64,000 nt of DNA. Origin: Candidatus Nomurabacteria bacterium. Lineage in GTDB: Bacteria; Patescibacteriota; Minisyncoccia; Phycocordibacterales; UBA9973. Both the position numbers and the translations under genes were made by a program. The stretch lies in assembly GCA_023267195.1 (NCBI GenBank), contig JAHFNT010000003.1, positions 10,841 through 74,840 on the forward strand, given 5' to 3'. Position 1 is the stretch's first letter, and each line of letters starts with the position of its first letter. This document shows positions 1,229 through 53,129 of the stretch, in pieces. A model generated the notes under the pieces. It made no database searches and was not told the origin of the DNA. It saw only the letters and a program-made list of their open reading frames with translations.

Positions 1229-1241
1229 AATTAATTTTCGC

Positions 1242-9316: not shown

Positions 9317-9441
9317 ATTTATTTTTTCTCCGCTCCCATGGTTTAATAATACTTTCAATTGTACTACAAAAAATGTAAAAAGTTATCTAAAAAGTTATCC
9401 ACATAATTTAAAAAATTTAAAATTATAAATTTAGGCAAATT

Positions 9442-14893: not shown

Positions 14894-14921
14894 TATTTTA
14901 TAAATTAAATTATTCAACACT

Positions 14922-15140
14922 ATGGAACCAGATAAAAAATCAAATGGAGCGCTTGTGGGCTTAGTAGCAATAATAATCATTTTGGTGCTGGGTGGAGTAT
15001 ATATTTGGATGTCTAACAAAAATCAACCAGATAATTCTGGAGCTCTTTCAGATCAAGATTCTGCTGCTCTAGATGCTTTAGACCAAGATGCAGCCAGTGT
15101 AGATGTAAATACTGGAGTAGATGTAAACGCCTTGCAGTAA
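14922..15140 (+). CDS. small membrane protein (single TM, Asp-rich tail), hypothetical
   Basis: 72 aa, TM helix LVGLVAIIIILVLGGVYIW; position in gene-dense strand-consistent block. Confidence 0.4.
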   Translation: MEPDKKSNGALVGLVAIIIILVLGGVYIWMSNKNQPDNSGALSDQDSAALDALDQDAASVDVNTGVDVNALQ

Positions 15141-15229
15141 AAATATTTAGAGTTAACCTAAAAAATCCCATCATCAAAAATGATGGGATTTTTTGACAAA
15201 AAACCTAAATAAATATAAACTGAAAATCT

Positions 15230-16291
15230 ATGAAAATAACAGTAAAAAAATTGCCAAAAAGCGAAGTGGAGATTGAGGGCGAACTCGAGGCGGATAAGTT
15301 TGAGTCTTATTTTGCCCAAGCGTTAAAAAAGGTAGGGGAAAATCTGGAATTGGATGGATTCAGAAAAGGCAAGATACCGGAAAGTGTTTTGCTGTCCAAG
15401 GTACCTGAAATATCTATCTTGGAAGAAATGGCACAGCTGGCTCTGGGAGAACACTACCCCAAAATTCTAGAAGATGAAAAGATAGACGCGATCAGCCGGC
15501 CGGAAATCTCGATTACTAAATTAGCGCGCAAAAATCCGCTTGGTTTCAAAATCAAAACTGCCACCCTGCCCGCCATAAAACTTCCCGATTACAAAAAAAT
15601 TGCCAAGAATATAATTTCAAAAATAACTGACGCTGAAAAAAATGTAACAGTTACTGAGGAGGACCTAGAAAACATGATAATAGATATTAGGAAATCTCGC
15701 GCACCGAAAGTGCACATGGCGGAAGGAGCCGACCCTGTGCACAAAGAGGGAGAAACCCATCCAGAACCCGAGTTGCCAGAATTCAATGATGAATTTGTAA
15801 AAGCGCTTGGCCCTTTTAAGGATGTGGCAGACTTTAAAGAAAAACTTAAAATAAATTTAAAACTAGAAAAAGAAAACACACAGAAAGAGAAAACCAGGCT
15901 GAAGATAATTGACGAAATAATTGAAGGCAGCACGCTTGATTTACCTGAAATTTTAGTTGAAATTGAGCTGGATAAAATTTTATACCGAATGGAATCAGAT
16001 ATTGCTCAAATGGGTCTTCAGTTTGACGATTATTTAAAGCACCTGAACAAAACAAAGGATGATTTGCGAAAAGATTTTCGTAAAGACGCAGAGAAAAAAG
16101 CTAAACTCGCTCTGGTTTTGAATGAAATATCTAAAGTTGAAAAAATAGTTGCTGATTCGGAACAAGTAGCTAAAGAGGTGGCCGCTATTTTGGAACAATA
16201 CAAAGAAGCAGATCCGGAACGTGCTCGCATGCACGCCGAGCAAGTTCTAACCAACGAAAAAATCTTTCAGTTTTTAGAAACCCAACAATAG
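15230..16291 (+). CDS. tig: trigger factor (short form lacking recognizable PPIase domain)
   Basis: 353 aa; N-terminal ribosome-binding signature GFRKGKIP; C-terminal helical arm domain; no FKBP-like block. Confidence 0.7.
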   Translation: MKITVKKLPKSEVEIEGELEADKFESYFAQALKKVGENLELDGFRKGKIPESVLLSKVPEISILEEMAQLALGEHYPKILEDEKIDAISRPEISITKLARKNPLGFKIKTATLPAIKLPDYKKIAKNIISKITDAEKNVTVTEEDLENMIIDIRKSRAPKVHMAEGADPVHKEGETHPEPELPEFNDEFVKALGPFKDVADFKEKLKINLKLEKENTQKEKTRLKIIDEIIEGSTLDLPEILVEIELDKILYRMESDIAQMGLQFDDYLKHLNKTKDDLRKDFRKDAEKKAKLALVLNEISKVEKIVADSEQVAKEVAAILEQYKEADPERARMHAEQVLTNEKIFQFLETQQ

Positions 16292-29196: not shown

Positions 29197-29721
29197 TTAT
29201 TTTTGAGGTATTGGTAATCCAAGCTTTTGTAATGGTAAATATTTAAAATAATATTGACACCCAACAGATATTATATAATCACAAACATCTTTATAGGACG
29301 AGTGTTTGAACCAATCACTAAGTATATAAATGTATTCCACTTCTATGTTTAGAGGAGCCATTAACTTTGCATATTGTTTTCTTTTAAAATCACATGTTTG
29401 TAATTTTTCATCAACAGAACCTGCGACTTTTTGAAATTTTACTTCAATAATAAAAAGTGTGTTATTTACAATTACATAAATAGCTTCATCTGGCAATAAT
29501 TTCTTAGAAAGAATCTTTTTATAATCAATTTTTTTAGATTCGAGAAATTTATACAATGCGTTCTTCTTGAAACTCCTTGCAACTTCTTTCCCATTGTAAA
29601 GTATAATATTACCATTAATTTTGTAACCTTTCTGTTTTTTTAGTAACGCCAAAATATCACTTTCTTTTTCAAAATTTAACCCAGTTATTGTATTACCACC
29701 ACCCTTTCCTTTTTCAATCAT
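29197..29721 (-). CDS. Type II restriction endonuclease (PD-(D/E)xK fold), candidate
   Basis: 174 aa; D...IIEVKFQK PD-ExK-like core; start overlaps stop of the DNA methyltransferase; very AT-rich relative to neighbours. Confidence 0.5.
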   Translation of the reverse strand: MIEKGKGGGNTITGLNFEKESDILALLKKQKGYKINGNIILYNGKEVARSFKKNALYKFLESKKIDYKKILSKKLLPDEAIYVIVNNTLFIIEVKFQKVAGSVDEKLQTCDFKRKQYAKLMAPLNIEVEYIYILSDWFKHSSYKDVCDYIISVGCQYYFKYLPLQKLGLPIPQK

Positions 29722-29722
29722 A

Positions 29723-30544
29723 TTATTTTTTTAAATCATTAAATCGCTTTATTGATAAATCTAGATAATTTTTTTCCATATCAATACCAATGAATTTTCT
29801 ACCATTCATTACTGAAGCTATGCCAGTAGTAGAACTTCCCGCAAAAGGATCTAGAACAACGTCCCCTTTGTTTGTGCTGGATAGAACAATACGCTTCAAC
29901 AAATCTAAGGGCTTCTGAGTAGGGTGCTTTCCGTACTTCTTCTCCTCTGGTTTAGGTGTGCCCATAGACCAAACTGATCTCATTTGAAGTCCTGGTTTTT
30001 TTAATCTATCTTCCGGCCAATTTCCATCTTTCATTTCTCTATAATTAAAAGTGTGTTTTGCTCTTTTGTCTTTTCTGGCCCAAATGATTGTTTCATGACT
30101 TGCTGTAAAAAAACGACAACTCAAATTTGGTGAAGCATTAGGTTTAAACCAAGATATATCATTTAAGATATGGTAACTTAGGGACTGTAAGGCATGTCCA
30201 CATTGATAAATGGAATGGTATGTGCCGCTCACCCATAAGGTACCATTTGGTTTTAAAACACGTTTACATGCTTGAAGCCAACGATAATGGAAGGCATAAT
30301 CATCTAAAAAACCTTTACTGATGTCCCACTCACCTTTATTTACACTAACCATTTGTCCTGCGTGCACAGTAAAGCCTCCATTTGACAGATTATATGGCGG
30401 ATCTGCAAAAATCATATCAACTGAATCTTCTGGAAGTTGATTTAAAATATCTAGACAATCTCCATTGTATAAAACAAAATTATCCTTAGAAAAATAAGGC
30501 TTATTTTTAACTACCGAAAGAATTTTTTTATCTACAACTACCAT
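29723..30544 (-). CDS. DNA methyltransferase, beta-class N6-adenine/N4-cytosine (DPPY)
   Basis: 273 aa; motif IV DPPYNL near N-terminus and motif I LDPFAGSSTTG near C-terminus (beta-class order). Confidence 0.85.
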   Translation of the reverse strand: MVVVDKKILSVVKNKPYFSKDNFVLYNGDCLDILNQLPEDSVDMIFADPPYNLSNGGFTVHAGQMVSVNKGEWDISKGFLDDYAFHYRWLQACKRVLKPNGTLWVSGTYHSIYQCGHALQSLSYHILNDISWFKPNASPNLSCRFFTASHETIIWARKDKRAKHTFNYREMKDGNWPEDRLKKPGLQMRSVWSMGTPKPEEKKYGKHPTQKPLDLLKRIVLSSTNKGDVVLDPFAGSSTTGIASVMNGRKFIGIDMEKNYLDLSIKRFNDLKK

Positions 30545-30567
30545 ATACTTATATTAACATTTTTTGG

Positions 30568-31080
30568 CTAAAAACGAATTTCTTCATTGTATAACCTTTT
30601 ATAAACTTCCGTTGATTCTTTAATAAGGCGAATAATATGTCTCTTTAGGTAAATTTTGTACTCACCATAGAAAAAAGCTATATCATCTTCATAATCTGCT
30701 CCATGCGATACACCATCTATGCTTATTGCATTCGGAACTTTACCACTAATCATATTGAAAACAAATTTAATCTGATATTTCTTATCTAGTAGGTTTTCAG
30801 GAGAACTAAGATGAAAAGCGGAATTACGAACTTTATTTACTAAATCAGTAATATCGGAAATGTCTGTGTTAATAGAAACATCGTCCTTAAAATTTATACG
30901 CTCTCCTAATTTAACAAATTTCTGTAATAAATCATCAAGTTTTAGAATTATGGAAATAAAAACTGGCTCACGAAACACTCTAAGAACATCAGCCCCAAAT
31001 ATACCTGTGTTAATAAACTGGACTATGTCCCGAATGTTTGATTCTATTTGAGATTTTATAAAAAAATTATCTTTATCCAT
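30568..31080 (-). CDS. HEPN-like (Rx4H motif) protein, candidate abortive-infection/RNase toxin
   Basis: 170 aa, predicted all-alpha; motif RNSAFH matching HEPN Rx4-6H; ATG 2 nt after lexA stop with AGGAAA SD inside lexA 3' end. Confidence 0.35.
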   Translation of the reverse strand: MDKDNFFIKSQIESNIRDIVQFINTGIFGADVLRVFREPVFISIILKLDDLLQKFVKLGERINFKDDVSINTDISDITDLVNKVRNSAFHLSSPENLLDKKYQIKFVFNMISGKVPNAISIDGVSHGADYEDDIAFFYGEYKIYLKRHIIRLIKESTEVYKRLYNEEIRF

Positions 31081-31082
31081 TT

Positions 31083-31661
31083 TTAGTATTTCCTAATCAC
31101 CGCTTTTACCACTGCATTTATATTTAAAGAATGTTCTGGGTAAATGGGTTGATAATTTTTATTGGCAGGTTCAAGCCAGGCTTTGGCACCACTCTTTCTA
31201 AAATATTTCATCGTGAATTCCCCATCCACTTCGGCTATGACTATTTGCCCATCGTCGGCTTTATTCGTCTTCTCCACGAGCACCATATCTCCGGGTTCGA
31301 TGTGCGCCTCGATCATAGAATCGCCGTCAACTTCGAGCATATAGGTAAGCGGTTTATTTTTTATTAAAAGATCGTCGAGGTTTACAGTATCTGCCAGCTC
31401 TTCTTCGACTGTCGCGGGAAAACCGGCCGTGACAAAACCGAGCAATGGCACACCCCCAGCTTCCTCTCCAAAAGTTTCAGACGGAATTAATCTGCCAAGA
31501 TGATCCTTCGCCACAATTCCCGCCTCGATTAACTTTTCCACCACGCGAAACACCGCGTTCTTTGATTTAAAACCGAATAACTGCAGCATCTCCGAATACG
31601 ACGGCATGCGTTTATTGTCTCGGTAAAAGGATTCTAGTTTTATTTGATGCAAACTACGCAT
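31083..31661 (-). CDS. lexA: LexA-family repressor (wHTH + S24 self-cleaving peptidase)
   Basis: 192 aa; N-terminal wHTH, cleavage-site region, S24 Ser/Lys dyad context (DGDSM ... K). Confidence 0.85.
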   Translation of the reverse strand: MRSLHQIKLESFYRDNKRMPSYSEMLQLFGFKSKNAVFRVVEKLIEAGIVAKDHLGRLIPSETFGEEAGGVPLLGFVTAGFPATVEEELADTVNLDDLLIKNKPLTYMLEVDGDSMIEAHIEPGDMVLVEKTNKADDGQIVIAEVDGEFTMKYFRKSGAKAWLEPANKNYQPIYPEHSLNINAVVKAVIRKY

Positions 31662-31860
31662 AAATGTTCGTTCGGAAAAATAGAGTAACTAGTTTGTTGG
31701 TGAAACTTGTTCTCGTATTATAGCGAACTTTCTTCAAAAGCAATTTGTGATCCCTCGCCTCTTTGCGATAATCCAATCCTTGGAGAATTTTTAAGTCAAT
31801 TTTTTTATTGATCTTTTGAATCTCCCTCTCTAACATTTTTACATATTGTGATTGTGACAT
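31654..31860 (-). CDS. small basic coiled-coil protein overlapping lexA start, hypothetical
   Basis: 68 aa; ATGA-type 8-nt overlap with lexA; first ORF downstream of the LexA-box promoter. Confidence 0.35.
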   Translation of the reverse strand: MSQSQYVKMLEREIQKINKKIDLKILQGLDYRKEARDHKLLLKKVRYNTRTSFTNKLVTLFFRTNIYA

Positions 31861-36530: not shown

Positions 36531-39500
36531 ATGCAATCGGGCCAAGCAACCACTTTGTCGGGCACTTACTCCAAAGTAACATTTCTTCACAAATTGCTAG
36601 CGTTTTCGCTGGCTTTTTTGTTTTTAGTAGTTCCGCTTGCTCCAGTTTGGGCAGAAAAAGTTACCGAGGACCCATCTGCGATTTCTAAAGTTGAATCAAC
36701 CACCACAGAACCGGAAATTGTTACTGAGAATAGCGAGGACGCAGATGTTTCAACAAAAGTAGACATGGATAAACAACCACCGGCACCACAGTCGTTTACC
36801 GTAAATAATATATCTGGGGATAATCGCGATAAACCAAATTTGAGTTTTCCTCAAGTGGATCAGGCCTCTGGCGGGTTAGCTTATAGTTATCCCTTAAATA
36901 TACCGCCCGGTAGAAATGGTTTTAATCCAAATTTAACTTTGCAATATTCAAGCCAAGATACAGATCAAGCATCGGTTTTTGGTTATGGATGGTCAATCAA
37001 TATACCTTACATAAAACGTTTGAATAAAACTGGAGTAGAAAAATTATATACAACCAATTACTTTACCTCTTCACTCTCCGGTGAATTGGTAAATGTTTCT
37101 GGTTCTACCTATGCGCCTAAGGTGGAAAATGGGGATTTTCTAAAATATAACTACGATGGCACCTCTTGGATCGTAACCGATAAAAAAGGAACAGTCTACA
37201 AATTTGGGACAAGCACACCAGCCAGACAAGACGACACCACTGGAACGAAAATTTACAAATGGATGCTCGAGGAAGCAAGAGATACAAATAATAATTTCAT
37301 CAAATATGAATATTACAAAGACACTGGGCAAATTTATCCTGAAACTATAAAATACACCGGCAACGACACGACCAATGGAGTGTTTTCAGTAAGTTTGATT
37401 CGTTCTGGAAGAAATGACAACATTACACAAAACTCAACGCTCTTTAGTATAACTACCAATTATAAAATATCTGAAATACAAACAATAACCAATGGGACTT
37501 GGAATAAAAAATATATTTTGGGTTATTCAAATGGTGACAATGGTTATAAATCATTAATAACTAGCATCACGGAGTCAGGACAGGATGAAAATGCAAATGT
37601 TGTCACATTGCCACCTGTGCAATTTACTTATCAAGTAGCGACAACGCCAGGAAGTGATTTTGTTTCTGATTTTGCCTGGTCTAATCCTGTTTCTCCAACA
37701 ATTTCTACCAATCCATCTTATGGAGCGGTGGTAGCAGATGTTAATAGTGATGGTCTGCCGGATATTATGGAATCATATAGAAGTTCCGGAACTCTTATTT
37801 GGTACAAAGGAACTTACTTAAATAACGGCAACGGAACCTGGACCCAAAATCCAAATCTTGAACCGCCAACAATTTTTGGAGATAATAATCCAGTAACGGA
37901 ACAAGGGATAAGGGCAGTTGACTTGAATGCGGATGGATTTGTAGATCTGGTTCAAAGTTCTGGGTCTCTGTCGAAAGTTTATATAAACACAGGAACTTCA
38001 TGGGTTTTGAATAATAACTGGATTCCCAAATGTGCCTTTGCTAGCCCAATATATGGAGACATTGGTTGTAGATTAGATGATATAAATGGTGACGATTTGC
38101 CAGATTTTTTCATAGCGAGAGGTGATAACACCGGCAACCCACCAATCAATACCGAAGTATATTTAAATAATGGGAACGGTTGGAGTGAAAATCCTGAACC
38201 AGGCTGGAGTATACCTGCAGACTTAAGATTTGGCACAGTACCCGTAGATTATAATGGTGACGGACTTTTGGATTTTTTACAAGGCTACAAAAATACTTTG
38301 AGCAACCCAACAGTTGAAATAAAAAAGGCATATAAAAATAACGGGGACAAAACTTGGTCTTTGGATGGTGCATATACATCTCCAGTAATTTTCGCAACTC
38401 AAACAAACTTAGCTTCATTGCCGTTTACTACCGGAGCTTTAGTAGCGGATGTGAATGGAGATGGTTTAGTTGACATATTACATGGCACCGAAACAACTGA
38501 TGGTGGACATCTAAATAAGGGCACAGGCTGGAGTTTTACACCAAACTGGGACTTTGGTCATGGTTCTATTCCAATCGAAGCACCACTCCGGGCTAGATTA
38601 GGAGATTTTGATGGAGATGGAATGATTGATTATTATGAAAGTGGAAGTGGTAGCGCAACTTTTTCTAAAAATCAAAACATAAAGGCGGATCTAATCAAAA
38701 CCATAAAGAATCAATATGGTGGAATTTCAACCATTACTTACAAAGGCTCAACTCAATACAAAAATGGCAATAGCTTAGCAAACCCAAATCTGCCATTCAA
38801 TATAATAACTGTAAGCAGTATTTCCTCTAACCCCAGCCTTGGAGGAACAAGTGTTGTGAAAAATTACACTTATGAACAAGGAGATTATTATTACAACACA
38901 ATACTGGATAGAAAATACGCCGGTTTTGGAAAGATAATTGACCTTGATTCTTCTGGCGCCAAAACCGCCAGCTATTTTCATCAAGGCAATGAGACAAATT
39001 CTAGCTTAGGTGAATACGATGATCATCCGTCAAAAATCGGCAAAATTTACCGCACCGAAATTAGAGACAGCTCCGGGAATTTATATGAGAGCGTGATCAA
39101 TAAATGGGAAAAACAAAATTTGGGCCCGGGTAGAGATTTTGCCAAACTGGCACGAACAATGGTCATGTCTTTTGACGGCAATAGCGACAACAGAAGCAAG
39201 GCGGAAGAATACTCATACGATAGTTATGGCAATCTAACGCAAAAAATTTCCTGGGGAGAAGTGATAGGCGCAACTGACGGAACATTCACCGACCTGGGGA
39301 ACGACAAATTTACGGAAAATATTTCTTATGTTTCAAATACTGGCAATTATGTCGTGGGTTTACCATCTCAAGATATAGTACTCGATCAAAATTCAGACAA
39401 AGTTCGTGAGACAAAAATGTATTATGATGGACTCGCTTTTGGTTCGGTCGGCACGGGCAATGAAACCAAACTGGAAAAATGGAAATCTGGCAGTTCGTAT

Positions 39501-42500
39501 GTAAATACTCAAAAATCTTACAATATAACTTACGGGATTTTGACTTCCTCCACCGATGAACGAGGCAAGGTTACAACTTACTCTTATGATTCTTATAATC
39601 TATACCCAATTTCAGTAACTAATCCTGCCCTGCAGATAGTACGATATCTTTATGATTATTCTCTCGGCAAACCAAAACAATTGATTGATCAAAACAGCTT
39701 CACTTATCAAACAATTTTTGATGGACTGGATAGAGTATTGCAAGAAAAAGTTCCGGACTTATCTTCACCTGATACTTTAGTAGTCAAAACAGCCTACACC
39801 TATGCTGACACCTCTCTCGCGGTAGGTGTTTTGAAAACAGATTATTTAGATAGCACAAATTCTGTAAATACCTACCAATATTTTGACGGCCTGAATCGTT
39901 TGATCCAAGAACGCAAAGAGGCCGAGCAGAGCAACTCCTACAATACTCGCGATATTGTGTACAATAATTTCGGTTTAATCCAAAAAGAATCTTTACCTTA
40001 TGCGTCAAATGGGTATGCCAGGACAAATCCAACTACCGACAATGCCCTTTACACTTCCTATTCTTATGACGCGCAAAAGAGAATCAGCAATGTCGCAAAT
40101 GCAGTGGGTAACACCTCGACCAATTACGATGACTGGAAAACTTCCATTACTGATCCGAATGGTAAAATCAAACATTTCTTGAGCGATGGGTATGATAATC
40201 TAGTAAAGGTGGAGGAAATAAATGCTGGCAATACTTACAACACTTACTACGAATGGGATGGTAACAAATTTCTGACTAAAATCACCGATGCTCTCGCCAA
40301 TGTTCGCAATTTCACTTACGACGGGCTGGGCAGGAGGCTCACTGCAGAAGATTTGCATGCCATGGGAGACAGTACTTATGGCACTTGGGCTTATACCTAT
40401 GACGATGCAGGCAATCTGACGCGAAGTATAAGCCCAGAAACAAAAATTATAAATTATTCTTATGACGACATTAATAGATTGCAAACTGAAGATTATGTGG
40501 GAGGTAGCGGAATGGAAATATCCTATGTTTATGATAATTGCACAAACGGCATAGGAAAATTATGCTCTTCAACAGTTTTGGGCGGAGGAGACAATGTCTA
40601 CACTTATGATAGTGTAGGTAATATTGCTTCTGATCAAGCCACTATCAACGAAAATATTTATCTCACGTCGTATTCATACGATCGACAAAATAATTTGTCA
40701 CTCATAACCTATCCAGATAATGCACAAGTGAAATATATCTACAATGCTGCCGGCTTGCTTGAAAAAGTTGAAAGAAAAGAAAATAGTGGAACATTTGTAG
40801 ATGTAATTTCAAATTTTGATTATAATCCAACAGAACAAGTGGCCGTGCAAGCAGATGCAAATGGCATCACTACGACAAATACTTATGATTCAGGAAAATT
40901 ATACCGTTTGACAAATAAGAAAACTTTGAATTCTACCCCCATTTCTCCTTGGAAAGATCCTAACCCCGCTATCACCCCCATAGATCCATATGTAACAAAT
41001 TTTGGGAACATAAATATTACCCCTAAAACAAATCTATCGATTGCCTTGCAAGATTTATCTTATATTTATGATAATGTCGGTAATATTATTAAAATCATTG
41101 ATTCATCAAATACTACCACTGCCAAAACTGCTGATTATGTCTACGACGATCTATACCGCTTAGTTTCTGCTACTATCACTGGCGTACCATCTCCCCAAAC
41201 TCCCTACATTCAAACCTTCACCTATGACGCTATTGGTAACATCACTTCCGGCCCGCTTGGCACTTATCTTTATCAAGGTAACACCGGAGTAAACTACGCC
41301 AACCCCCACGCTACCACCTCTATTGGTGGAGTAGAACAAACTTACGACAAAGATGGCAATCTAATTTCTGCTGGAGATATTACTTACTCTTGGAATTACA
41401 AAGGGAAACTTGCTGAAACTCTTTCAGTATACAACTATTACAACGCCAAAGGAGACAGAGTACAAACCAATGCTTTCTCTTCTATCAATACCTATTATCC
41501 CAATAAATTCTATAGCACCTCCTGCCCCAATTGTTCCGACAGGCAACCTCCAGATCAAGAACGTCAAATCAAATTAACCAAACAAATCTACATTGGAGAT
41601 ACACTGGTAGCCACCACTGAAACTCTAAGCGCCGTTGTCACCCCATATTATGATCACACCGATCAATTAGGTTCCATTACCATTGTCTCTGATGCCAACA
41701 AGAATATTGCGCAAACTTTAGATTACTATCCTTATGGCAAGAAAAGAGTCGTTGCCCCTCCTGGAGACTATGATTCACAGCGCCAATACATCGGACAAAT
41801 CTATGATCTAGATACTGGACTAAACTATCTAAATGCGAGATACTATGATGGAAACAAGGGGCAGTTTATTTCGCAGGATCCGATGTTTTGGAACTTTGAC
41901 AATTCCTGGTTGCTTGATCCACAGAACATGAATGCGTATAGCTATGCAAGGGGGAATCCGATGAATAGGTCGGATCCGGGTGGTATGGCTAGTAAAGAAT
42001 TTAATTTTCCTACGTTTACGATGATAAAATCGTTTTTCAATTCTTTGGTGGGGAAAACAAATACGCAGAGGGAGACAACGCAAATTCCATTTATAAATCA
42101 AAATAATTCTCAAAAAAAGACCGACAATTCTGGCCAAAATAAAAATACTTCTGGTTATATAAGAAGCAATGATGTTAATATCACCTTTAGCCCGGGAGCT
42201 GATAATGTTGTTAACCAAAAAATGGTTGATGGATATAAAAATGTATTTAAAGAAGCAGGACATTATGGTATAATTTCTGTTAATTTTTATTCAACCACAA
42301 ACCATGTATCAGAACCACCCGGCAGTTTTTCTTGGCATGACTTTGCGCTTGCTGGTGATATTAATATGGTCAATGGCATGAAAGCAACCGAAGATAATTT
42401 TTATGCAAAAACTTTGCAGGAAGTTATAAACCGGACACAAGGAGTAAGAGAGAATTTTGGTCCATTTATGATTACACATTCCAGTAAAATATATTCTCAA

Positions 42501-42563
42501 GAAGAATATTCAAGGTTAAGCAAACAGCACCAAGATCATCTTCATACTTCTTTTAATCAATGA
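36531..42563 (+). CDS. RHS/YD-repeat polymorphic toxin, Tc-toxin TcB-TcC fusion-like (SpvB N-domain + FG-GAP propeller + RHS shell + variable C-terminal toxin domain)
   Basis: 2010 aa; signal peptide; SpvB-type N-domain (GGLAYSYPLNIPPGRNGFNPNLTLQYSS); six FG-GAP/VCBS-like DxNxDGxxD repeats; many YD repeats (YSYDSYGNL, YTYDDAGNL, YVYDDLYRL); RHS core end RYYDGNKGQFISQDP...YSYARGNPMNRSDPGG; ~190-aa C-terminal domain with H-x6-D and HxH. Confidence 0.85.
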   Translation: MQSGQATTLSGTYSKVTFLHKLLAFSLAFLFLVVPLAPVWAEKVTEDPSAISKVESTTTEPEIVTENSEDADVSTKVDMDKQPPAPQSFTVNNISGDNRDKPNLSFPQVDQASGGLAYSYPLNIPPGRNGFNPNLTLQYSSQDTDQASVFGYGWSINIPYIKRLNKTGVEKLYTTNYFTSSLSGELVNVSGSTYAPKVENGDFLKYNYDGTSWIVTDKKGTVYKFGTSTPARQDDTTGTKIYKWMLEEARDTNNNFIKYEYYKDTGQIYPETIKYTGNDTTNGVFSVSLIRSGRNDNITQNSTLFSITTNYKISEIQTITNGTWNKKYILGYSNGDNGYKSLITSITESGQDENANVVTLPPVQFTYQVATTPGSDFVSDFAWSNPVSPTISTNPSYGAVVADVNSDGLPDIMESYRSSGTLIWYKGTYLNNGNGTWTQNPNLEPPTIFGDNNPVTEQGIRAVDLNADGFVDLVQSSGSLSKVYINTGTSWVLNNNWIPKCAFASPIYGDIGCRLDDINGDDLPDFFIARGDNTGNPPINTEVYLNNGNGWSENPEPGWSIPADLRFGTVPVDYNGDGLLDFLQGYKNTLSNPTVEIKKAYKNNGDKTWSLDGAYTSPVIFATQTNLASLPFTTGALVADVNGDGLVDILHGTETTDGGHLNKGTGWSFTPNWDFGHGSIPIEAPLRARLGDFDGDGMIDYYESGSGSATFSKNQNIKADLIKTIKNQYGGISTITYKGSTQYKNGNSLANPNLPFNIITVSSISSNPSLGGTSVVKNYTYEQGDYYYNTILDRKYAGFGKIIDLDSSGAKTASYFHQGNETNSSLGEYDDHPSKIGKIYRTEIRDSSGNLYESVINKWEKQNLGPGRDFAKLARTMVMSFDGNSDNRSKAEEYSYDSYGNLTQKISWGEVIGATDGTFTDLGNDKFTENISYVSNTGNYVVGLPSQDIVLDQNSDKVRETKMYYDGLAFGSVGTGNETKLEKWKSGSSYVNTQKSYNITYGILTSSTDERGKVTTYSYDSYNLYPISVTNPALQIVRYLYDYSLGKPKQLIDQNSFTYQTIFDGLDRVLQEKVPDLSSPDTLVVKTAYTYADTSLAVGVLKTDYLDSTNSVNTYQYFDGLNRLIQERKEAEQSNSYNTRDIVYNNFGLIQKESLPYASNGYARTNPTTDNALYTSYSYDAQKRISNVANAVGNTSTNYDDWKTSITDPNGKIKHFLSDGYDNLVKVEEINAGNTYNTYYEWDGNKFLTKITDALANVRNFTYDGLGRRLTAEDLHAMGDSTYGTWAYTYDDAGNLTRSISPETKIINYSYDDINRLQTEDYVGGSGMEISYVYDNCTNGIGKLCSSTVLGGGDNVYTYDSVGNIASDQATINENIYLTSYSYDRQNNLSLITYPDNAQVKYIYNAAGLLEKVERKENSGTFVDVISNFDYNPTEQVAVQADANGITTTNTYDSGKLYRLTNKKTLNSTPISPWKDPNPAITPIDPYVTNFGNINITPKTNLSIALQDLSYIYDNVGNIIKIIDSSNTTTAKTADYVYDDLYRLVSATITGVPSPQTPYIQTFTYDAIGNITSGPLGTYLYQGNTGVNYANPHATTSIGGVEQTYDKDGNLISAGDITYSWNYKGKLAETLSVYNYYNAKGDRVQTNAFSSINTYYPNKFYSTSCPNCSDRQPPDQERQIKLTKQIYIGDTLVATTETLSAVVTPYYDHTDQLGSITIVSDANKNIAQTLDYYPYGKKRVVAPPGDYDSQRQYIGQIYDLDTGLNYLNARYYDGNKGQFISQDPMFWNFDNSWLLDPQNMNAYSYARGNPMNRSDPGGMASKEFNFPTFTMIKSFFNSLVGKTNTQRETTQIPFINQNNSQKKTDNSGQNKNTSGYIRSNDVNITFSPGADNVVNQKMVDGYKNVFKEAGHYGIISVNFYSTTNHVSEPPGSFSWHDFALAGDINMVNGMKATEDNFYAKTLQEVINRTQGVRENFGPFMITHSSKIYSQEEYSRLSKQHQDHLHTSFNQ

Positions 42564-42576
42564 TTATAAAAAATTT

Positions 42577-43020
42577 ATGAAAAAAATAGGGAAAATCATT
42601 ATACTTACTGGTATTGTATTAATAACATTTTTTATATTCTATAAAAATACATCCCGTATAGTATTAGGAACCTTTTTAGAAGTTCCAGAAAATTTGATGG
42701 ATTCCGGTTGTACTTTTTATTGGAGCCAAGAAGATAGTGTTAATAAAAAATATGCTTTTGTATCTACCTTTGGATCCAATAAAGATTTAACTCCAAATGC
42801 TTTGATTGTTATCAACAATAATCCAGAAAAATTAAACGAAACAAATTCAGGTAGCAACAATTTATATAAATATTCAAATAGTAAATTTGATGTCGTAATA
42901 AAAATTACAAGCAGTATTCCGTCTGGCAACGAAGGCTCCTCTGAAAAAGGTATTTTAACTGTTGAGGATAAAAGTGGGAAAAGTACTTCAAAGGAAGTGA
43001 CGGGATATTGTGGAACCTAG
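42577..43020 (+). CDS. candidate cognate immunity protein (membrane-anchored, periplasmic-facing)
   Basis: 147 aa; 13 nt after toxin stop; N-terminal signal-anchor MKKIGKIIILTGIVLITFFIF then soluble domain. Confidence 0.4.
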   Translation: MKKIGKIIILTGIVLITFFIFYKNTSRIVLGTFLEVPENLMDSGCTFYWSQEDSVNKKYAFVSTFGSNKDLTPNALIVINNNPEKLNETNSGSNNLYKYSNSKFDVVIKITSSIPSGNEGSSEKGILTVEDKSGKSTSKEVTGYCGT

Positions 43021-43057
43021 GTAAAAATAAAAGCGAATACTTTTTATCAAAAATTAA

Positions 43058-43936
43058 ATGAAGGATAAATTAATACAATTAAAAAATTCAAAATTATTTA
43101 ATGTATTAATTGTTATTTTTGTGTTTATTTTTGTTGGTTTTTTGTTAGTTAATCAGCAAAATCTTAAAGTAAAAGGTATTGATGAAAAAGTTGCCGCGAT
43201 TGAAAAAGACAATAGTCTTAGAAAAAGAACATTCACGAATGACCAATTTATTGAAATTGACTCGGTAACAGATAATGGCCAAGAGCTAATTGTATATTAT
43301 AAAGATAATCAAATTAAAAAATTGGAATATTCATTGGGGCTTTCTTTTGGCGTAAAAAAATTGGCTTCTTATTTTGACACAGGAAAAGTATTTTATGTTC
43401 ATGAAACAGAACAGGACTTTCCTGTACTAAATAACGCTGAGGGACTTAATTATGAAAAACTAAATCTTGCCTTCGAGGGATGGTATTACTTTGATAACAA
43501 TAAACTAATAAAGCAAAAAACCATTGGGAAGAAAAGATTTGAAGATGATAACAAGATAGATGCTGTACTGAAACTTTCGGCTGGAGCAGAAGAAAGTCTA
43601 AAATTGTTATTAGATAATGAGAATAAATCTAAAGAAGAAAAACTCTCATCCTGTTTAATGTTATTAGAGCAAGTCAATGCATCATTAATCGATGAAAGCG
43701 AATGGGAGGCAGTAGAAATAGATAAAGTTAATGAGGAAAAGGTGTCTCTTAATAACTTGGCAGCAAAAAAGTTTCAGGAGGCATCTAGGAATAAGGAAGA
43801 AATTCAAGCAAATTATGGACCCTTCATCATGGAAAAAACTAAGACCAGAGGAGGTGAGATTATACAAGAAACTAATCCTGAGTTGATAAAATGTGCTCAA
43901 GACAGAATTATTATATCAATTTGGCAACCTAAATAA
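43058..43936 (+). CDS. hypothetical membrane-anchored protein
   Basis: 292 aa; single N-terminal TM; same strand in toxin/immunity neighbourhood. Confidence 0.4.
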   Translation: MKDKLIQLKNSKLFNVLIVIFVFIFVGFLLVNQQNLKVKGIDEKVAAIEKDNSLRKRTFTNDQFIEIDSVTDNGQELIVYYKDNQIKKLEYSLGLSFGVKKLASYFDTGKVFYVHETEQDFPVLNNAEGLNYEKLNLAFEGWYYFDNNKLIKQKTIGKKRFEDDNKIDAVLKLSAGAEESLKLLLDNENKSKEEKLSSCLMLLEQVNASLIDESEWEAVEIDKVNEEKVSLNNLAAKKFQEASRNKEEIQANYGPFIMEKTKTRGGEIIQETNPELIKCAQDRIIISIWQPK

Positions 43937-44078
43937 TGCAAAAGACAGCTGATAAAGCAAATCAGGTAAAAAATTATGTTAAAAATTTTGTTAGATCTAT
44001 TACTAATTAATGAATACTATATATGGAACAGAAAACAATAAATGTATGGGTGGTTAGGTTTATTAAAAATATAGTTAA

Positions 44079-44432
44079 AATTTTTATTGGGGGAGGAGGA
44101 GTCGCGATAATTCTTGCAATGTTGCTGGAATATTTTTTGCTTATTCAGAAGGATTAGGGTGGAGTAATGGATTACAGGATTACTTATTCGCCTTTTATCT
44201 TATTGGTATCACTTCAATTTTTACTTCTGCTATTTTTGCTTCATCTTTTTTTATAGTTACACTAAATAAGCAGGATGCAAAGTGGTATATCCTCGCAGTT
44301 TTGTCTGGTTTCTTTAATTTCCTATTCTATTTTATCCTTAAGGATTTAACTTCAGGGTTAAAAGGCATAATCATGCTGTTCGTTATTGGATTAGTAGTAA
44401 ATATTATCTCATTCCGGAGAAGTGTAATATAA
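44079..44432 (+). pseudogene. start-less open frame encoding multi-TM membrane-protein fragment (possible decayed immunity/orphan gene)
   Basis: 118 sense codons after a TAA with no ATG/GTG/TTG at its 5' end; encodes hydrophobic helices (LFAFYLIGITSIFTSAIFASSFFIV); surrounding 1.1 kb lacks intact ORFs. Confidence 0.25.
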
Positions 44433-44539
44433 TCCATGTAGAAACAATAGTGGCTATCCCCGTTATTCTTTCAGTTTGGTCATTTTTGGACAAAAAAATT
44501 ACAAAAACTAAGGAAAATTAATAACATAATTATAACATA

Positions 44540-44902
44540 ATGGACATATTTATATTCTTTGGTTTCGTGTTGTTTATGGTGGGTATTATTTTAATGTTTT
44601 ATTTCCCACCAATGAGAAAAATTGAAGTAAAGTATTGGGTGAGTATAGTCATATCTTTAATATGTCTACTAGAGATTATTGGTGTTTCAACTTCTTCTGA
44701 TGATCTATATGCCATTTTTATGTATCAAATTATAACTGCCCCCTTAGGCATCATTTCTTTTCTGGTTTCACTTATTATTCAGAGAATGGAAAAAAGTAAA
44801 GAAAAATGGAAAACATATACTACAATAGGAGGAATTATATTAGGACTAATTACTGCCATATTGCCAATAGTCTTATTCAAGATGGGTATGATGCTCAGAT
44901 AA
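44540..44902 (+). CDS. small 4-TM membrane protein, hypothetical
   Basis: 120 aa, four hydrophobic helices. Confidence 0.35.
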   Translation: MDIFIFFGFVLFMVGIILMFYFPPMRKIEVKYWVSIVISLICLLEIIGVSTSSDDLYAIFMYQIITAPLGIISFLVSLIIQRMEKSKEKWKTYTTIGGIILGLITAILPIVLFKMGMMLR

Positions 44903-45107
44903 ATACCGTTTTTGATAAATAAAGATAGATAGGCGCAGCCACCATTTCTACTCTCCCCATTCTGGTTTTCTAATACCCAATTTTTCTTTTACAAAAAAGT
45001 CTACTCCATCTGATAAAACTTTCCCCCAACCTCCCTGCCTGAATGCTCCTTCACTCAAAATTTTTACAATTCCCAATTTAAAATTTTTGCGGTATAATTA
45101 ACCAACA

Positions 45108-45737
45108 ATGCCATTCAATTTCAGTTTTGAAGATGCGAAGGTTGTTTTAGGTATCGTCGCTGGAATTATTGCCTTGTTTGCTTATATAGTTTATGTAATA
45201 TCTATATTTCGGGGTGGTTCAAAACCAAACCGCGCCACTTGGTGGATCTGGGCTTTTATGGGCTTAGTGCTAGCGCTAAGTTATCAATTTTCTGGTGCTG
45301 GAAATACTATCTGGGTACCATACGTTGAATTTTTAGGACCATTCACCATCGCACTGCTATCTTTAAAATATGGAGAGGGTGGATTGAGTGATAAAACAGA
45401 TTTGTTTTGTCTGTTTGGCGCAATTTTCAGCGTCATACTTTGGATTATTTTTGATAATCCGACAATCGCGTTAGTAACAAATCTAGCTATTGATTCTTTT
45501 GCCATAGTTCCAACAATTAAGAAATCGTATTTGCGTCCAGAGGGAGAAGATTTTTGGGCATGGTTTGGCACTGGCGTGGCAGATAGCCTCAATATGTTCG
45601 CGGTTGAGAAATTTACTTTTGCAATACTTGTATACCCTATCTATATGCTTGTTTCTGATCTTATAATAATTTTTATACTTCTTTTACGAAAAAAAGGTAT
45701 AATGAAAGACGTAAGTTTTCTCACCAAGCATGATTAA
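45108..45737 (+). CDS. polytopic membrane protein, hypothetical
   Basis: 209 aa, ~6 TM helices; 3 nt before SET-domain gene. Confidence 0.4.
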   Translation: MPFNFSFEDAKVVLGIVAGIIALFAYIVYVISIFRGGSKPNRATWWIWAFMGLVLALSYQFSGAGNTIWVPYVEFLGPFTIALLSLKYGEGGLSDKTDLFCLFGAIFSVILWIIFDNPTIALVTNLAIDSFAIVPTIKKSYLRPEGEDFWAWFGTGVADSLNMFAVEKFTFAILVYPIYMLVSDLIIIFILLLRKKGIMKDVSFLTKHD

Positions 45738-45740
45738 TTT

Positions 45741-46283
45741 ATGAAAATATATATCGGGAAAAGTAAGCTAGATGGAAAAGGATTGTTTGCGGCAAGAAAA
45801 ATAAAAAAGGGAGAAATTGTTTTTATAATAAAAGGAAAAAAGGTTAAATTTTTAATAGATGGTGAAAAACAAGCTAGAATTGCTGGATTGAATTGGGTTG
45901 GCATAGGAAAAAATGAATGGATAGATCCCATTAATCATTGTATTTACTTTAACCACTCCTGTAATCCAAATTCAGGGATAAAAGGAACAGTTACAGTGGT
46001 AGCACTTCGAGACATAAAGAAAAACGAAGAAGTAACTTTTGACTACTCTTTGGATGAAGCAGATATTTTTTGGCATTTAAAATGTAATTGTAATAACACA
46101 AATTGCAGAAAAATAATTAGATCGATACAATTTTTACCCCACAAAATTTTTAACCAACGTATAAATTCTATACCAAAATACTTTCAACAAGTCTATAAAA
46201 AATATAAGATATCTAATTTTGCAAACGAGCAAGAACTTCAGGAAAAGTGGGTAAATTTTCTTAAAAAAGATTTTAATGTATAA
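45741..46283 (+). CDS. SET-domain protein (putative protein lysine methyltransferase)
   Basis: 180 aa; GKGLFA...GE.V N-SET region, NHSCNPN, EEVTFDY, post-SET Cys cluster CNCNNTNC. Confidence 0.7.
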   Translation: MKIYIGKSKLDGKGLFAARKIKKGEIVFIIKGKKVKFLIDGEKQARIAGLNWVGIGKNEWIDPINHCIYFNHSCNPNSGIKGTVTVVALRDIKKNEEVTFDYSLDEADIFWHLKCNCNNTNCRKIIRSIQFLPHKIFNQRINSIPKYFQQVYKKYKISNFANEQELQEKWVNFLKKDFNV

Positions 46284-46448
46284 TATGTATTGTATGATTA
46301 ATAAGGGGTCTAAAATTTTTTTCACAATCTTTTTTATTCTCGTAATAAGTTCAGTTATATTTACCTATTATCGATATGTAGTATTAAAAGATTTTGACTT
46401 TTTTACCGACAAAGAGGCTTTTGATGCTTCACTATCCGAAGAATAAAT

Positions 46449-48104
46449 ATGGAAACCTCCATTCAAACATTTATAGACATGTGCCAATGGGATACTACAA
46501 AGTTTTTAATCTTTTCAAATAATGTTTTTGGTATGTTAATATACTATTCCCATCTTTCTGCTCTAGTTTTATCGCTAGCAATTGGCATTTTTATATTTTT
46601 TAGGGATAAAAAATCACTTATTAACAAACTACTTTTTTTTATAACACTAACATTTTCATTGTGGGTGTTTCTTGACTTGTTTTTGTGGGCTAATGAAAAA
46701 CCTGATTTACAAATGTTTGCCTGGTCGATGATCATATTGGTGGAACTCTTAATATATATATTAAGCCTTTATTTTATAGATGTTTTTATAAACAAACAAG
46801 ATATAAGTCTTAAAAAAAAATTTGGGATATTTTTACCATTATTACCAGTAATAATTTTACTCCCTACCAAGTTTTTATTACAAGGTTTTGATCTAACTAA
46901 CTGCTACAGAGACACATCTGAAGGATTTTTAGCTATATATTACGTATATCTAATAGAAATATTCTATGCTTTTTGGATATTATTATTTTTGTTTAAAGAA
47001 TATAAGAAGGCGTTACCAGATATAAAAAAACAGATAATACTTATATCAACAGGAATAATTTTGTTTCTAATCAGTTTTGTTTCAGGAAATATTATAGGAA
47101 GCTTGACGGACAGTTGGACTACGGCGCAGATTGGCCTTTTTGGTATGCCGATTTTTGTTGGGTTTTTGGCATACATGATCGTAAAATTTAAAACTTTCAA
47201 TATAAAAATGATCGGGGCGCAGGCACTTGTTTTTGCTTTGGGGTTTTCTGTGCTTGGAATTATTTTTATTAGAACGGTTGAAAATGTGCGTCTTGTAGCA
47301 ATTGCCACCTTACTTCTAATAATTATAGTTGGATACCTTCTCATAAAAGGGGTCAAACGGGAAGTTGCGCAGAAAGAGCAACTGGCAGCGCTGAATGAGA
47401 GTTTGAAGAATTTGATCAAGCAAAGGGAGAGCTTGGTGCACCTTATTACCCATAAAGTTAAAGGATCTTTCACTCGCACAAAGTTTCTTTTTGCTGGAAT
47501 GCTCGATGGCACTTTTGGAGAAATATCGCCGGAGATCAGAAAAAGAGCAGAGCAAGGTCTAGAATTTGACAATGGAGGAATACAGACAGTTGATCTCGTG
47601 TTAAACGCCGCCAATCTGGAAAATGGCATTATTAAATACGATATGAAAAAGGTTAATTTCAAAGATGTGGTCAGTGAGACCATCAATGATAAAAAGTTGG
47701 CCGCCGAGGCAAAGAGTCTGCAGATAGAAACAAAAATGGAAGATGGATTTTACAATGTGGAAGGCGATGCTTTTTGGTTGAAAGAAGTAGTAAATAATTT
47801 AATTGATAATTCAATAAAATATACCAGGGAGGGCAAGATCCTGGTGGAGCTCAAAGATGGAGATGGAAAAGTGAGGCTTTCTATTACCGATACCGGCATC
47901 GGCATCACCGAAGAAGATAAGACAAATCTGTTTAAAGAAGGTGGCCGGGGGAAAGATTCCGTCAAGATAAACGTGGATTCGACCGGCTATGGACTCTATA
48001 CAGTTAAATTGGTCGTAGAAGCACATAAAGGCCGCGTCTGGGCCGAATCTGAAGGATCGAATAAAGGCTCCAAATTCTTTGTAGAATTGCCAGCGATAAA
48101 ATAA
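46449..48104 (+). CDS. sensor histidine kinase with ~8-TM N-terminal sensor domain (orphan)
   Basis: 551 aa; phospho-acceptor HKVKGSF; HATPase_c N/G1/G2 boxes (NLIDNSIKYT, DTGIGI, GYGLY); no adjacent response regulator. Confidence 0.8.
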   Translation: METSIQTFIDMCQWDTTKFLIFSNNVFGMLIYYSHLSALVLSLAIGIFIFFRDKKSLINKLLFFITLTFSLWVFLDLFLWANEKPDLQMFAWSMIILVELLIYILSLYFIDVFINKQDISLKKKFGIFLPLLPVIILLPTKFLLQGFDLTNCYRDTSEGFLAIYYVYLIEIFYAFWILLFLFKEYKKALPDIKKQIILISTGIILFLISFVSGNIIGSLTDSWTTAQIGLFGMPIFVGFLAYMIVKFKTFNIKMIGAQALVFALGFSVLGIIFIRTVENVRLVAIATLLLIIIVGYLLIKGVKREVAQKEQLAALNESLKNLIKQRESLVHLITHKVKGSFTRTKFLFAGMLDGTFGEISPEIRKRAEQGLEFDNGGIQTVDLVLNAANLENGIIKYDMKKVNFKDVVSETINDKKLAAEAKSLQIETKMEDGFYNVEGDAFWLKEVVNNLIDNSIKYTREGKILVELKDGDGKVRLSITDTGIGITEEDKTNLFKEGGRGKDSVKINVDSTGYGLYTVKLVVEAHKGRVWAESEGSNKGSKFFVELPAIK

Positions 48105-52172: not shown

Positions 52173-53129
52173 ATGGCCTCAGAAATTGACCAATTGCAAA
52201 GAGAATTTTTAGAATACCTTGAGATAGAGAAGGGCTCGGCTAGCCGCACTATTGAAAATTACGAACACTATCTATCGCGATTCTTTGAATTTGCAAAAAC
52301 CAAACAAGTGAAAAGTGTAGGGCAAATTACAACTGATCTGGTGCGAGAATTTAGATTGTGGCTAAACAAACAACCCGCCTCCTTAAAAGCAAAGCGTGGC
52401 AAACCTGTGCTAGTGGAAACTTTGTCCAAGAAAACCCAAAATTATTATTTAATCGCCCTGCGGGTATTTCTGAAATATTTAGGTAAAAGAGGAATAAAGT
52501 CTATCTCCGCGGATCAGATAGAATTGGCAAAAATTCCTGAACGTCCCATTGATCTTATTACTCCACTAGAACTCTCTCACCTGCTTGATGCTCCGTCAGG
52601 CAACGACCTGAAGGCCCTGAGAGACAAAGCAATTTTAGAACTTCTTTTTTCCACCGGACTTAGAGTTTCTGAACTTTGTTCTTTATCCAGAGAAATCGGC
52701 ACCAATCATGAAGAGTTGTCTATTAGAGGCAAGGGCGGTAAAGTGCGAGTAGTATTTTTATCCGAACAAGCGAGAACCGCCCTAAAGAAATATTTAGATG
52801 CCCGAAAAGATATGGAAGATGGACTTTTTGTGCAAGTGGAAAATGAAATTTCAAAAAACAAAGAACAGAAGAAAGAAATCAAACACCTCACCAAAAGATC
52901 AGTTGAGCGAATTGTAAAATATTATGCGATTAAAGCTGGTATTTCGAAAAAGGTGACTCCACATGTGATCCGCCACTGTTTTGCCACCGATCTGCTTTCC
53001 AATGGCGCCGACATCCGCAGTGTACAAATGATGCTAGGGCATGCCAACATCGGCACTACGCAAATTTATACGCACGTCACCGACAAACACTTGCACGATA
53101 TACATAAAAAATTCCATAATAAGGGATAA
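52173..53129 (+). CDS. xerC: tyrosine recombinase XerC/XerD family
   Basis: 318 aa; SAM-like N-domain; catalytic R...HxxR...Y (HVIRHCFAT ... GHANIGTTQIYTHV). Confidence 0.85.
   Translation: MASEIDQLQREFLEYLEIEKGSASRTIENYEHYLSRFFEFAKTKQVKSVGQITTDLVREFRLWLNKQPASLKAKRGKPVLVETLSKKTQNYYLIALRVFLKYLGKRGIKSISADQIELAKIPERPIDLITPLELSHLLDAPSGNDLKALRDKAILELLFSTGLRVSELCSLSREIGTNHEELSIRGKGGKVRVVFLSEQARTALKKYLDARKDMEDGLFVQVENEISKNKEQKKEIKHLTKRSVERIVKYYAIKAGISKKVTPHVIRHCFATDLLSNGADIRSVQMMLGHANIGTTQIYTHVTDKHLHDIHKKFHNKG

Follow-up and report, generated by a model that had tools for sequence, protein, structure and literature searches.

A TcB-TcC-fusion-like RHS protein with a divergent, LAS-like C-terminal domain and a linked candidate immunity gene

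Which activity does a very large RHS protein carry at its C-terminus, and how would the producing cell be protected against it? This question is raised by two adjacent genes in a 64-kb stretch of DNA (the window, which is the whole stretch analysed). The first gene (36531..42563, plus strand, start ATG, stop TGA) encodes a TcB-TcC-fusion-like RHS protein of 2010 amino acids, and an identical protein is found on the 65-kb ENA metagenome contig ERZ27279942 k141_3815836. The second one is an open reading frame (ORF) of 147 codons (42577..43020, plus strand), which begins 13 nt past the stop codon of the first. A sequence-only reading of this locus had proposed that the tail of the large protein is a LAS/M15-like zinc peptidase released as a toxin, and that the small protein is its immunity protein. 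All features described in that reading were found again, and its interpretation is supported. We consider it likely, with a probability of roughly 0.72, that the locus is a polymorphic toxin/immunity module, consisting of a Sec-exported cocoon, a LAS-type wall-peptidase tip and a membrane-anchored inhibitor encoded next door. All parts of the two genes described below are located on the plus strand.

The tail downstream of the Rhs core is 191 amino acids long. Searched on its own it gave no Pfam match even at E ≤ 10, only chance-level matches among the PDB sequences and nothing in a word-indexed search of 5.8 billion proteins. An exhaustive HMMER scan of 1.84 billion representative proteins identified 63 relatives of the tail at E < 1e-3, of which 21 reached E < 1e-10, and this family is not represented in NCBIfam. 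The shared part corresponds to amino acids 1872-2010 (42144..42560), and homologues, invariant residues, profile comparison, an AlphaFold model and Foldseek together identify it as a C-terminal toxin domain that resembles a divergent zinc peptidase of the LAS (Hedgehog/DD-peptidase) fold. The relatives range from 94 to 2271 amino acids in length, and in almost all of them the domain is located at the C-terminus or at most about 30 residues away from it. It is carried by SpvB-FG-GAP-RHS proteins, by RHS proteins without SpvB, by DUF6443(-RHS) proteins, by a protein whose releasing protease is Peptidase_C70 and by several proteins without a recognisable domain. Judged by these sequences, a C-terminal location on varied carriers is the distribution expected of polymorphic-toxin tips.

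The family alignment comprises 59 sequences, and residue numbers in the window protein correspond to alignment numbers plus 1871. Six columns are invariant (H1936, D1943, P1978, H2000, H2003 and H2005) and five more are conserved in at least 90% of the sequences (S1934, A1941, E1974, N1975 and G1977). The S-x-H-x6-D and H-x-H residues that the sequence-only reading had singled out are among them, S1934 in the second group and the others in the first. The first motif, SWHDFALAGD (amino acids 1934-1943, 42330..42359), contains the predicted first two zinc ligands, and the spacing H1936-x6-D1943 agrees with the H-x(3-6)-D metal motif. Many family members read exactly S-x-H-x-x-G-x-A-x-D, which we take to be the M15 signature. 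The second motif, HQDHLH (amino acids 2000-2005, 42528..42545), includes the H-x-H of LAS enzymes as H2003-L-H2005, invariant in all 59 sequences, with a predicted catalytic histidine and third zinc ligand; H2000 is an extra invariant histidine.

Profile and fold comparisons point in the same direction. The best match of the family profile to PDB sequences is the N-domain of Sonic hedgehog (E = 0.009), and a VanY-like carboxypeptidase is also listed. Both motifs are paired in the Hedgehog alignment: SaHsvGrAvDI is aligned with SLHYEGRAVDI, so that SWHDFALAGD of the window protein corresponds to SLHYEGRAVD, and HiHiSv is aligned with HIHCSVK. These Hedgehog segments presumably hold the zinc ligands of that domain. 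When the 59 members were compared singly with Pfam, sub-threshold matches were obtained to Peptidase_M15_4 (23/59), Extensin-like_C (9), Peptidase_M15_3 (7), VanY (3), HH_signal (1) and Peptidase_M74 (1), which we assume to be families of one Pfam clan; every other Pfam family was matched by at most four of the 59. The gathering thresholds of the curated M15 models (Peptidase_M15_3, M15_4 and VanY) were not reached, the best E-values of members being 2e-4 to 3e-4. The AlphaFold model of the tail domain, built on the family alignment, has a predicted local distance difference test score (pLDDT) of 96.6. Foldseek comparison of this model with the PDB returned LAS enzymes for all of the top 47 matches, with a probability of 0.8-1.0 for most and template modelling (TM) scores of up to 0.59. 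These matches included MepA, Hedgehog N-domains, the C-domain of VldE, Ply500, the DD-peptidase of Streptomyces albus, VanXYc and LdcB; ChiX followed at rank 50. Among the Foldseek matches in the viral library are cell-wall hydrolases of phages, M15 peptidases and tape-measure proteins.

The assignment to the LAS group is convincing because profile, Pfam matches of the members and fold agree, although each of them is weak alone. As had been proposed, remote homology and fold point solely to LAS/M15-type zinc peptidases; membership in a curated M15 family is not given, and by sequence the domain is related to M15 and M74 yet by score outside every curated family. A special kinship to Hedgehog was considered and rejected, since the fold and the Pfam matches of the members speak just as much for M15 and M74 enzymes. 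The tip most likely cuts the bacterial cell wall.

If the tail is a toxin, a cognate immunity gene is to be looked for directly behind it. The 147-aa protein has a hydrophobic helix at amino acids 4-22, and its AlphaFold model (pLDDT 87) shows a helix at residues 2-23 followed by an all-beta domain; it therefore looks like a signal anchor (amino acids ~4-23) with an extracytoplasmic domain. The distance of 13 nt and the signal anchor, both part of the sequence-only reading, were thus found again. The two toxins that are closest to the window protein (loci L002 and L003, tails 60% identical) are directly followed by ORFs of 148 and 144 amino acids, which are 55% and 49% identical to the 147-aa protein. 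The flanking genes of the window, L002 and L003 loci are otherwise unrelated. More distant loci were sought with a Bacteroidales-type sub-alignment of the tail family. Five were obtained (L005-L009), four of them from metagenome-assembled genomes (MAGs) of Bacteroidales, with tails 30-40% identical and with other carriers. Each of these tails is directly followed by an ORF of about 150-170 amino acids that belongs to the same family (E-values 1e-47 to 1e-58 with a hidden Markov model, HMM). Altogether, an immunity homologue is located directly behind the tail in 7/7 related loci that extend past the toxin gene (two from the Candidate Phyla Radiation, CPR, and five from Bacteroidales or unassigned). 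In 41 metagenomic loci with a related RHS shell neither the tail nor the 147-aa ORF family was found. Conservation of the small gene independently of the tail is the opposite of what is observed: it follows the tail over carriers and phyla and is absent from the 41 shells with other tails. This outcome favours its role as an immunity gene.

The members of the small family share the motif F-x2-IP-x5-GC-x-F/Y and a terminal G-x-C-G/E-C; invariant residues are F33, P37, C45, G125 and C145, two of them cysteines. Pfam contains no model for the family. All copies carry an export signal, which is a signal anchor in the CPR sequences and of the lipoprotein type (a cysteine behind a hydrophobic stretch) in those from Bacteroidales. 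These outward-facing signals and the two invariant cysteines fit an extracytoplasmic site of action. An exported inhibitor in turn implies toxin action beyond the cytoplasmic membrane, in agreement with a cell-wall substrate. The proposal of a peptidoglycan toxin acting in the target periplasm is therefore supported as to the wall site outside the cytoplasm. Since the producer probably belongs to the CPR/Patescibacteria, "periplasm" is better read as the cell-wall compartment outside the cytoplasmic membrane. The Bacteroidales locus L009 encodes three immunity paralogues, one right behind the toxin gene (4392-4877) and two about 1.5-2 kb downstream (6409-6882 and 6939-7412), an arrangement that resembles an orphan immunity array. 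In the Paceibacterota locus L003, a 433-aa ORF with a weak Hint_2 match (14320-15621) is located three genes past the immunity gene; Hint domains are processing modules in other polymorphic toxins.

The part of the protein upstream of the tail has the features of a closed toxin shell. A predicted Sec signal peptide covers amino acids 1-41 (36531..36653); it was read from the sequence, with a hydrophobic stretch at amino acids 22-40 (mean Kyte-Doolittle value 2.33) followed by the putative cleavage site VWA|EK. The equivalent sites in the two closest homologues, P0001 and P0002, are IFA|QE and IFA|EE, again after a hydrophobic segment. A TcB-like N-terminal domain of the SpvB type follows at approximately amino acids 112-400 (36864..37730; PF03534, E = 3.5e-16), with its best stretch at 112-199 and an approximate C-terminal limit. 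The next segment, amino acids 403-700 (37737..38630), consists of six FG-GAP blades that would form a beta-propeller (PF13517 FG-GAP_3, E = 6.9e-19; PF01839), and a regular-expression search found exactly six D-x-[ND]-x-D-[GD]-x-x-D motifs, at amino acids 403, 464, 517, 573, 640 and 692. TcdB_toxin_midN is located at amino acids 688-813 (38592..38969; PF12256, E = 7.4e-14) and is followed by a shell of YD/RHS repeats at approximately amino acids 814-1731 (38970..41723), detected with PF05593 RHS_repeat (E = 7.1e-23), TIGR01643 YD_repeat, NCBIfam YD_repeat_2x and the precomputed call PF25023 TEN_YD-shell. The Rhs-associated core, the putative autoprotease plug, occupies amino acids 1732-1819 (41724..41987) and is matched over its full length by TIGR03696 Rhs_assc_core (1-76/76, E = 2.8e-14). 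Its motifs RYYD (1770-1773) and DPGG (1815-1818) were located by regular expression, and the core ends with DPGG-M. By analogy with known Rhs and TcC proteins we infer that cleavage takes place after M1819. This order of domains (PF03534, PF13517/PF01839, PF12256, PF05593, TIGR03696) is that of the Tc BC subcomplex, and Pfam, NCBIfam and the regular-expression search agree on the BC-fusion-like RHS architecture with signal peptide, six blades and DPGG that had been read from the sequence. Pfam did not reveal a PAAR or related VgrG-binding module in the 2010-aa protein. A type VI secretion system (T6SS) Rhs effector was rejected as an identity for it, because the PAAR module was not found and a Sec-type N-terminal signal is present.

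Core and toxin domain are connected by a linker (amino acids 1820-1871, 41988..42143), which in the translation shows a helix-like FTMIKSFFNSL and then a low-complexity stretch rich in N, Q and K. Its identity to the closest homologues is only 15-18%, compared with 60% for the toxin domain that follows. Right behind the predicted cleavage site, amino acids 1820-1840 (41988-42050) form a short, amphipathic-looking segment, FTMIKSFFNSLVGK, that recurs in the fragmentary homologue P0007 as IDMIKSFWNSWFKK; P0001 and P0002 contain segments of looser resemblance. It may be a conserved pre-toxin helix.

Tip and shell are conserved to different degrees. The LAS domains of P0001 and the window protein are 60% identical, their shells only 35-44%, and the shell of P0001 is no closer to that of the window protein than are shells bearing other tails. 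The same tip was found on at least four types of carrier and is better conserved than the shell. In the 41 shell relatives, shell and core are up to 43-67% identical over the matched segment, and the tails after DPxG fall into several unrelated groups. Around the core/tail junction near 41.9 kb the GC content of the window falls from about 0.41 to 0.26-0.33 and stays low until about 47.1 kb. The contrast in identity between tip and shell and the drop in GC content fit an exchange of tip-plus-immunity cassettes between shells, as deduced from these comparisons.

Other tails of related shells were noted as well. In four shell relatives of the CPR type (L016, L019, L021 and L024) the tails contain GHSxG-type motifs (VGHSEGG, CHSHGC, VGHSHGG), which suggests that they are tips of the alpha/beta-hydrolase type (lipase or esterase). 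The tails of L012, L013 and L025-L027 are rich in Gly and Ala, hydrophobic and membrane-active in appearance.

Taken as a polymorphic toxin/immunity module, the locus might work as follows. Architecture, family, invariant residues, fold class, linkage of tail and immunity gene and outward topology signals are directly supported; autoproteolysis, zinc binding, the peptidoglycan substrate, the bond cut, neutralisation and an opening of the shell without TcA are deduced. The 2010-aa protein would leave the cell via Sec, and its SpvB domain, six-bladed FG-GAP propeller and YD/RHS cocoon would form a closed shell of the TcB-TcC type. The aspartyl protease of the Rhs core would then cut behind DPGG-M (~residue 1819), and the freed 191-aa tail would be stored within the shell until it is released at a neighbouring or target cell. 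There it would hydrolyse a peptide bond of the peptidoglycan outside the cytoplasmic membrane, with H1936, D1943 and H2005 as zinc ligands and H2003 as catalytic histidine. LAS enzymes as a group cut D-Ala-D-Ala, L-Ala-D-Glu, D-Ala-meso-diaminopimelate, LD or Gly-Gly bonds. In the producer's own wall compartment, the membrane-anchored, outward-facing and beta-rich 147-aa protein would bind and block the peptidase.

A TcA-like domain was found neither in the Pfam-scanned ORFs of the window nor in the precomputed Pfam calls for the locus nor in the 6-kb flanks of L002 and L003; for the window this absence had already been pointed out from the sequence alone. A self-contained, Sec-secreted BC cocoon of ultrasmall CPR/Patescibacteria might open at the surface of a neighbour or host without TcA and release the wall-lytic LAS peptidase there. 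We regard this as a speculative and rather unlikely extension of the proposal. If producer and targets lack an outer membrane the cargo would cross no membrane, which would make a TcA-independent cocoon plausible.

Several observations weigh against a wall-directed toxin with a linked inhibitor. The sequence links to LAS proteins are weak when taken singly, with best E-values of about 0.009 (PDB sequences) and 2e-4 (Pfam), below the curated thresholds, and the window's own tail contributes no Pfam match up to E = 10. The Foldseek E-values are modest (2e-3 at best) and the TM scores stay below 0.6. H and D are separated by up to x9-10 in many family members, which exceeds the classical x3-x6. 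The Foldseek matches of the immunity model are uninformative (lipocalin-like, TM about 0.3). Pfam-type scans did not find genes for a T6SS or a type VII secretion system (T7SS) in the window or in the L002/L003 flanks, and together with the missing TcA this speaks against the proposal. Finally, the cytoplasm is the site of action of most characterised Rhs and Tc cargoes. The latter point favours a toxin that acts in the target cytoplasm, for instance by VanX- or VanY-like destruction of D-Ala-D-Ala or UDP-MurNAc-pentapeptide precursors: Rhs and Tc cocoons classically deliver cytoplasmic toxins, and VanX and VanXY enzymes have the same fold. Immunity to a toxin of the cytoplasm would have to be provided in the cytoplasm as well, and all immunity homologues carry export signals; we therefore rejected a VanX-like toxin of this kind, to which we attach hardly any credence. 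It is also highly improbable that the LAS-like tip is a non-catalytic ligand binder similar to Hedgehog, or a metallopeptidase for a protein or lipid-linked substrate. This would agree with the best profile match, a Hedgehog N-domain of disputed peptidase activity, with the position of the family outside all curated M15 models and with the extra invariant H2000 and the conserved RENFGP motif, which are atypical of M15. The full metal and catalytic set is nevertheless invariant over 59 diverse sequences, which argues for catalysis; all solved bacterial and phage structures among the fold matches are cell-wall peptidases, and, with its immunity protein facing outward, the tip would be active in the wall compartment.

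Instead of an inhibitor, the 147-aa protein might be an accessory factor of the toxin, for example a chaperone for export or folding, a tether at the surface or a partner resembling a receptor. Its immunity role is deduced from position and co-occurrence alone and its fold has no match to known immunity proteins, but the family tracks the tail and not the carrier or a secretion module across unrelated carriers, the two additional copies in L009 are orphans without a toxin, and the protein is exported to the compartment in which the toxin presumably acts. These are traits of immunity proteins and atypical of chaperones. An accessory role thus seems very unlikely to us. A different purpose of the same pair, doubtful in our view but with more in its favour, is that of an episymbiotic or parasitic CPR weapon directed against the wall of the host for attachment, nutrient release or lysis, with the downstream protein guarding only the producer's own wall. 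The closest homologues come from MAGs of Candidatus Nomurabacteria and Candidatus Paceibacterota, the chromosomal context is CPR-like with PilB/PilC genes and a giant CARDB/fn3 surface protein in the window, and Sec export without a contact-dependent secretion system suits an attack on cell walls that lie exposed. The variety of tails on related shells, tight linkage of the immunity gene and the immunity arrays of Bacteroidales are, on the other hand, hallmarks of antagonism between kin or competitors. The data do not indicate a host, and roles against hosts and competitors are compatible with each other.

A polymorphic toxin/immunity module with a wall-peptidase tip has counterparts in several known systems. 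With the Tc BC cocoons of Photorhabdus and Yersinia (e.g. TcdB2-TccC3) the window protein shares the identical domain order, the DPxG autoprotease motif and a variable C-terminal cargo. It differs from them as a single polypeptide with a Sec signal peptide, for which no TcA translocator was found in the 64-kb window or beside the two closest homologues; its cargo is wall-peptidase-like and has a linked immunity gene, whereas the Tc cargo is an ADP-ribosyltransferase for insect cells, and its producer is probably a CPR bacterium. Sec-dependent RHS toxins of the WapA type (Bacillus subtilis), known from bacteria that lack an outer membrane, are similar in signal peptide, RHS repeats, variable C-terminal toxin and adjacent immunity gene. 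WapA itself has a nuclease tip that acts in the cytoplasm and wall-binding repeats. Compared with the LAS superfamily (MepA of M74; VanX, VanY and LdcB of M15; the L-Ala-D-Glu peptidases Ply500 and that of T5; VldE; ChiX; Sonic hedgehog), the tip has the predicted fold, the H...D and H-x-H motifs and the SxHxxGxAxD-type signature in common. It is, however, only 8-18% identical to the solved structures and sub-threshold for every curated family, it has motifs of its own (ISSTTNH, RENFGP and the extra His at -3 from HxH) and a variable length of the loop between H and D, and it is used as a polymorphic-toxin tip.

Wall-directed cargoes in RHS proteins have been described before. The part of Zhang et al. 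2012 (PMC3482391) covered here reports RHS proteins with L,D-peptidase (thiol) or NlpC/P60 tips and linked immunity genes, and the terms M15, VanY and carboxypeptidase were not found in that part; the tips catalogued in it thus differ from the LAS tip of the window protein. LAS-type effectors with M15 or Zn DD-peptidase domains are known from T6SS, such as Tpe14 of A. baumannii (PMC6833914) and Tse2b of S. rhizophila with its immunity protein Tsi2b (PMC13340143). As proposed for our locus, an antibacterial LAS-type peptidase is paired with an exported immunity protein in these systems. The T6SS effectors are associated with VgrG, have LysM or SH3 domains, are delivered by the T6SS and are caught by standard M15 models, whereas the window tip would be enclosed in an RHS cocoon with a Sec signal and is missed by these models.

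A third ORF (43058..43936, plus strand) begins 37 nt past the 147-aa ORF and codes for a membrane-anchored protein of 292 amino acids, possibly an accessory protein or a relic. In a single-sequence search the HMM of the tail family matched it with 38 bits (E = 6e-14). Its amino acids 217-287 (71 aa) represent a degenerate second half of the LAS domain: Glu stands in place of the ligand Asp, and none of the three His is retained (AQDRIIIS compared with HxDHxHxS). Amino acids 38-190 are homologous to L003 13291-14235 (E = 9e-10). Judging from this composition, the protein could have arisen by fusion of another gene with the relic of a displaced tip, or it could serve as a decoy or accessory protein without activity. 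The stretch of low GC content (41900-47100) spans the immunity gene, this ORF, several ORFs for small membrane proteins, a gene for a SET-domain protein and the 5′ portion of one for a histidine kinase, and its extent suggests a variable or acquired region that exceeds the toxin tip.

The genes around the locus are chromosomal housekeeping genes according to Pfam scans and precomputed Pfam calls (NusA, H+-pyrophosphatase, trigger factor, CarAB, PNPase, S15 and adenosylhomocysteinase). Pfam also identified the type IV pilus genes PilB and PilC and a 2093-aa CARDB/fn3 surface protein. The latter, with four CARDB domains and one fn3 domain (3077-9358, minus strand), adjoins the PilB-like (T2SSE) and PilC-like (T2SSF) genes (11-3002, minus strand), so that a giant surface protein sits beside type IV pilus machinery. 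A block with the look of a mobile element or defence island (29197-31860, minus strand) encodes a PD-(D/E)XK-like protein, an N6/N4 DNA methyltransferase, a 170-aa ORF, a Peptidase_S24 (LexA/CI-like) repressor and a 68-aa ORF. Elsewhere in the window, a tyrosine recombinase is encoded at 52173-53129, and tRNA genes are clustered at 59.7-60.9 kb; an Rfam scan of the window detected four tRNAs and did not find an rRNA. The MAGs in which the toxin and the 147-aa ORF have their closest relatives are annotated as Candidatus Nomurabacteria and Candidatus Paceibacterota, and these relatives indicate that the toxin is probably produced by a member of the CPR/Patescibacteria.

The kind of system described here is already known; new are the two families, which are not yet listed, the fact that they occur with a BC-type cocoon, and the probable CPR producer. 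Two protein families absent from Pfam and NCBIfam are defined, one of toxin tips with a LAS fold and one of the exported immunity proteins that go with them, and both are common to CPR/Patescibacteria and Bacteroidales. With them a zinc DD-peptidase-like enzyme joins the wall-directed cargoes of RHS cocoons. The invariant residues and the linked immunity gene enable a better annotation of dozens of toxin tips that are now "hypothetical". The locus also hints at Tc-BC-like shells that work without TcA in CPR bacteria, whose attack on hosts and rivals is little known. If TcA-independent cocoons of this kind exist, RHS cocoons would deliver a cargo that never enters the cytoplasm, and episymbionts without T6SS or T7SS could use them to breach the walls of hosts or competitors.

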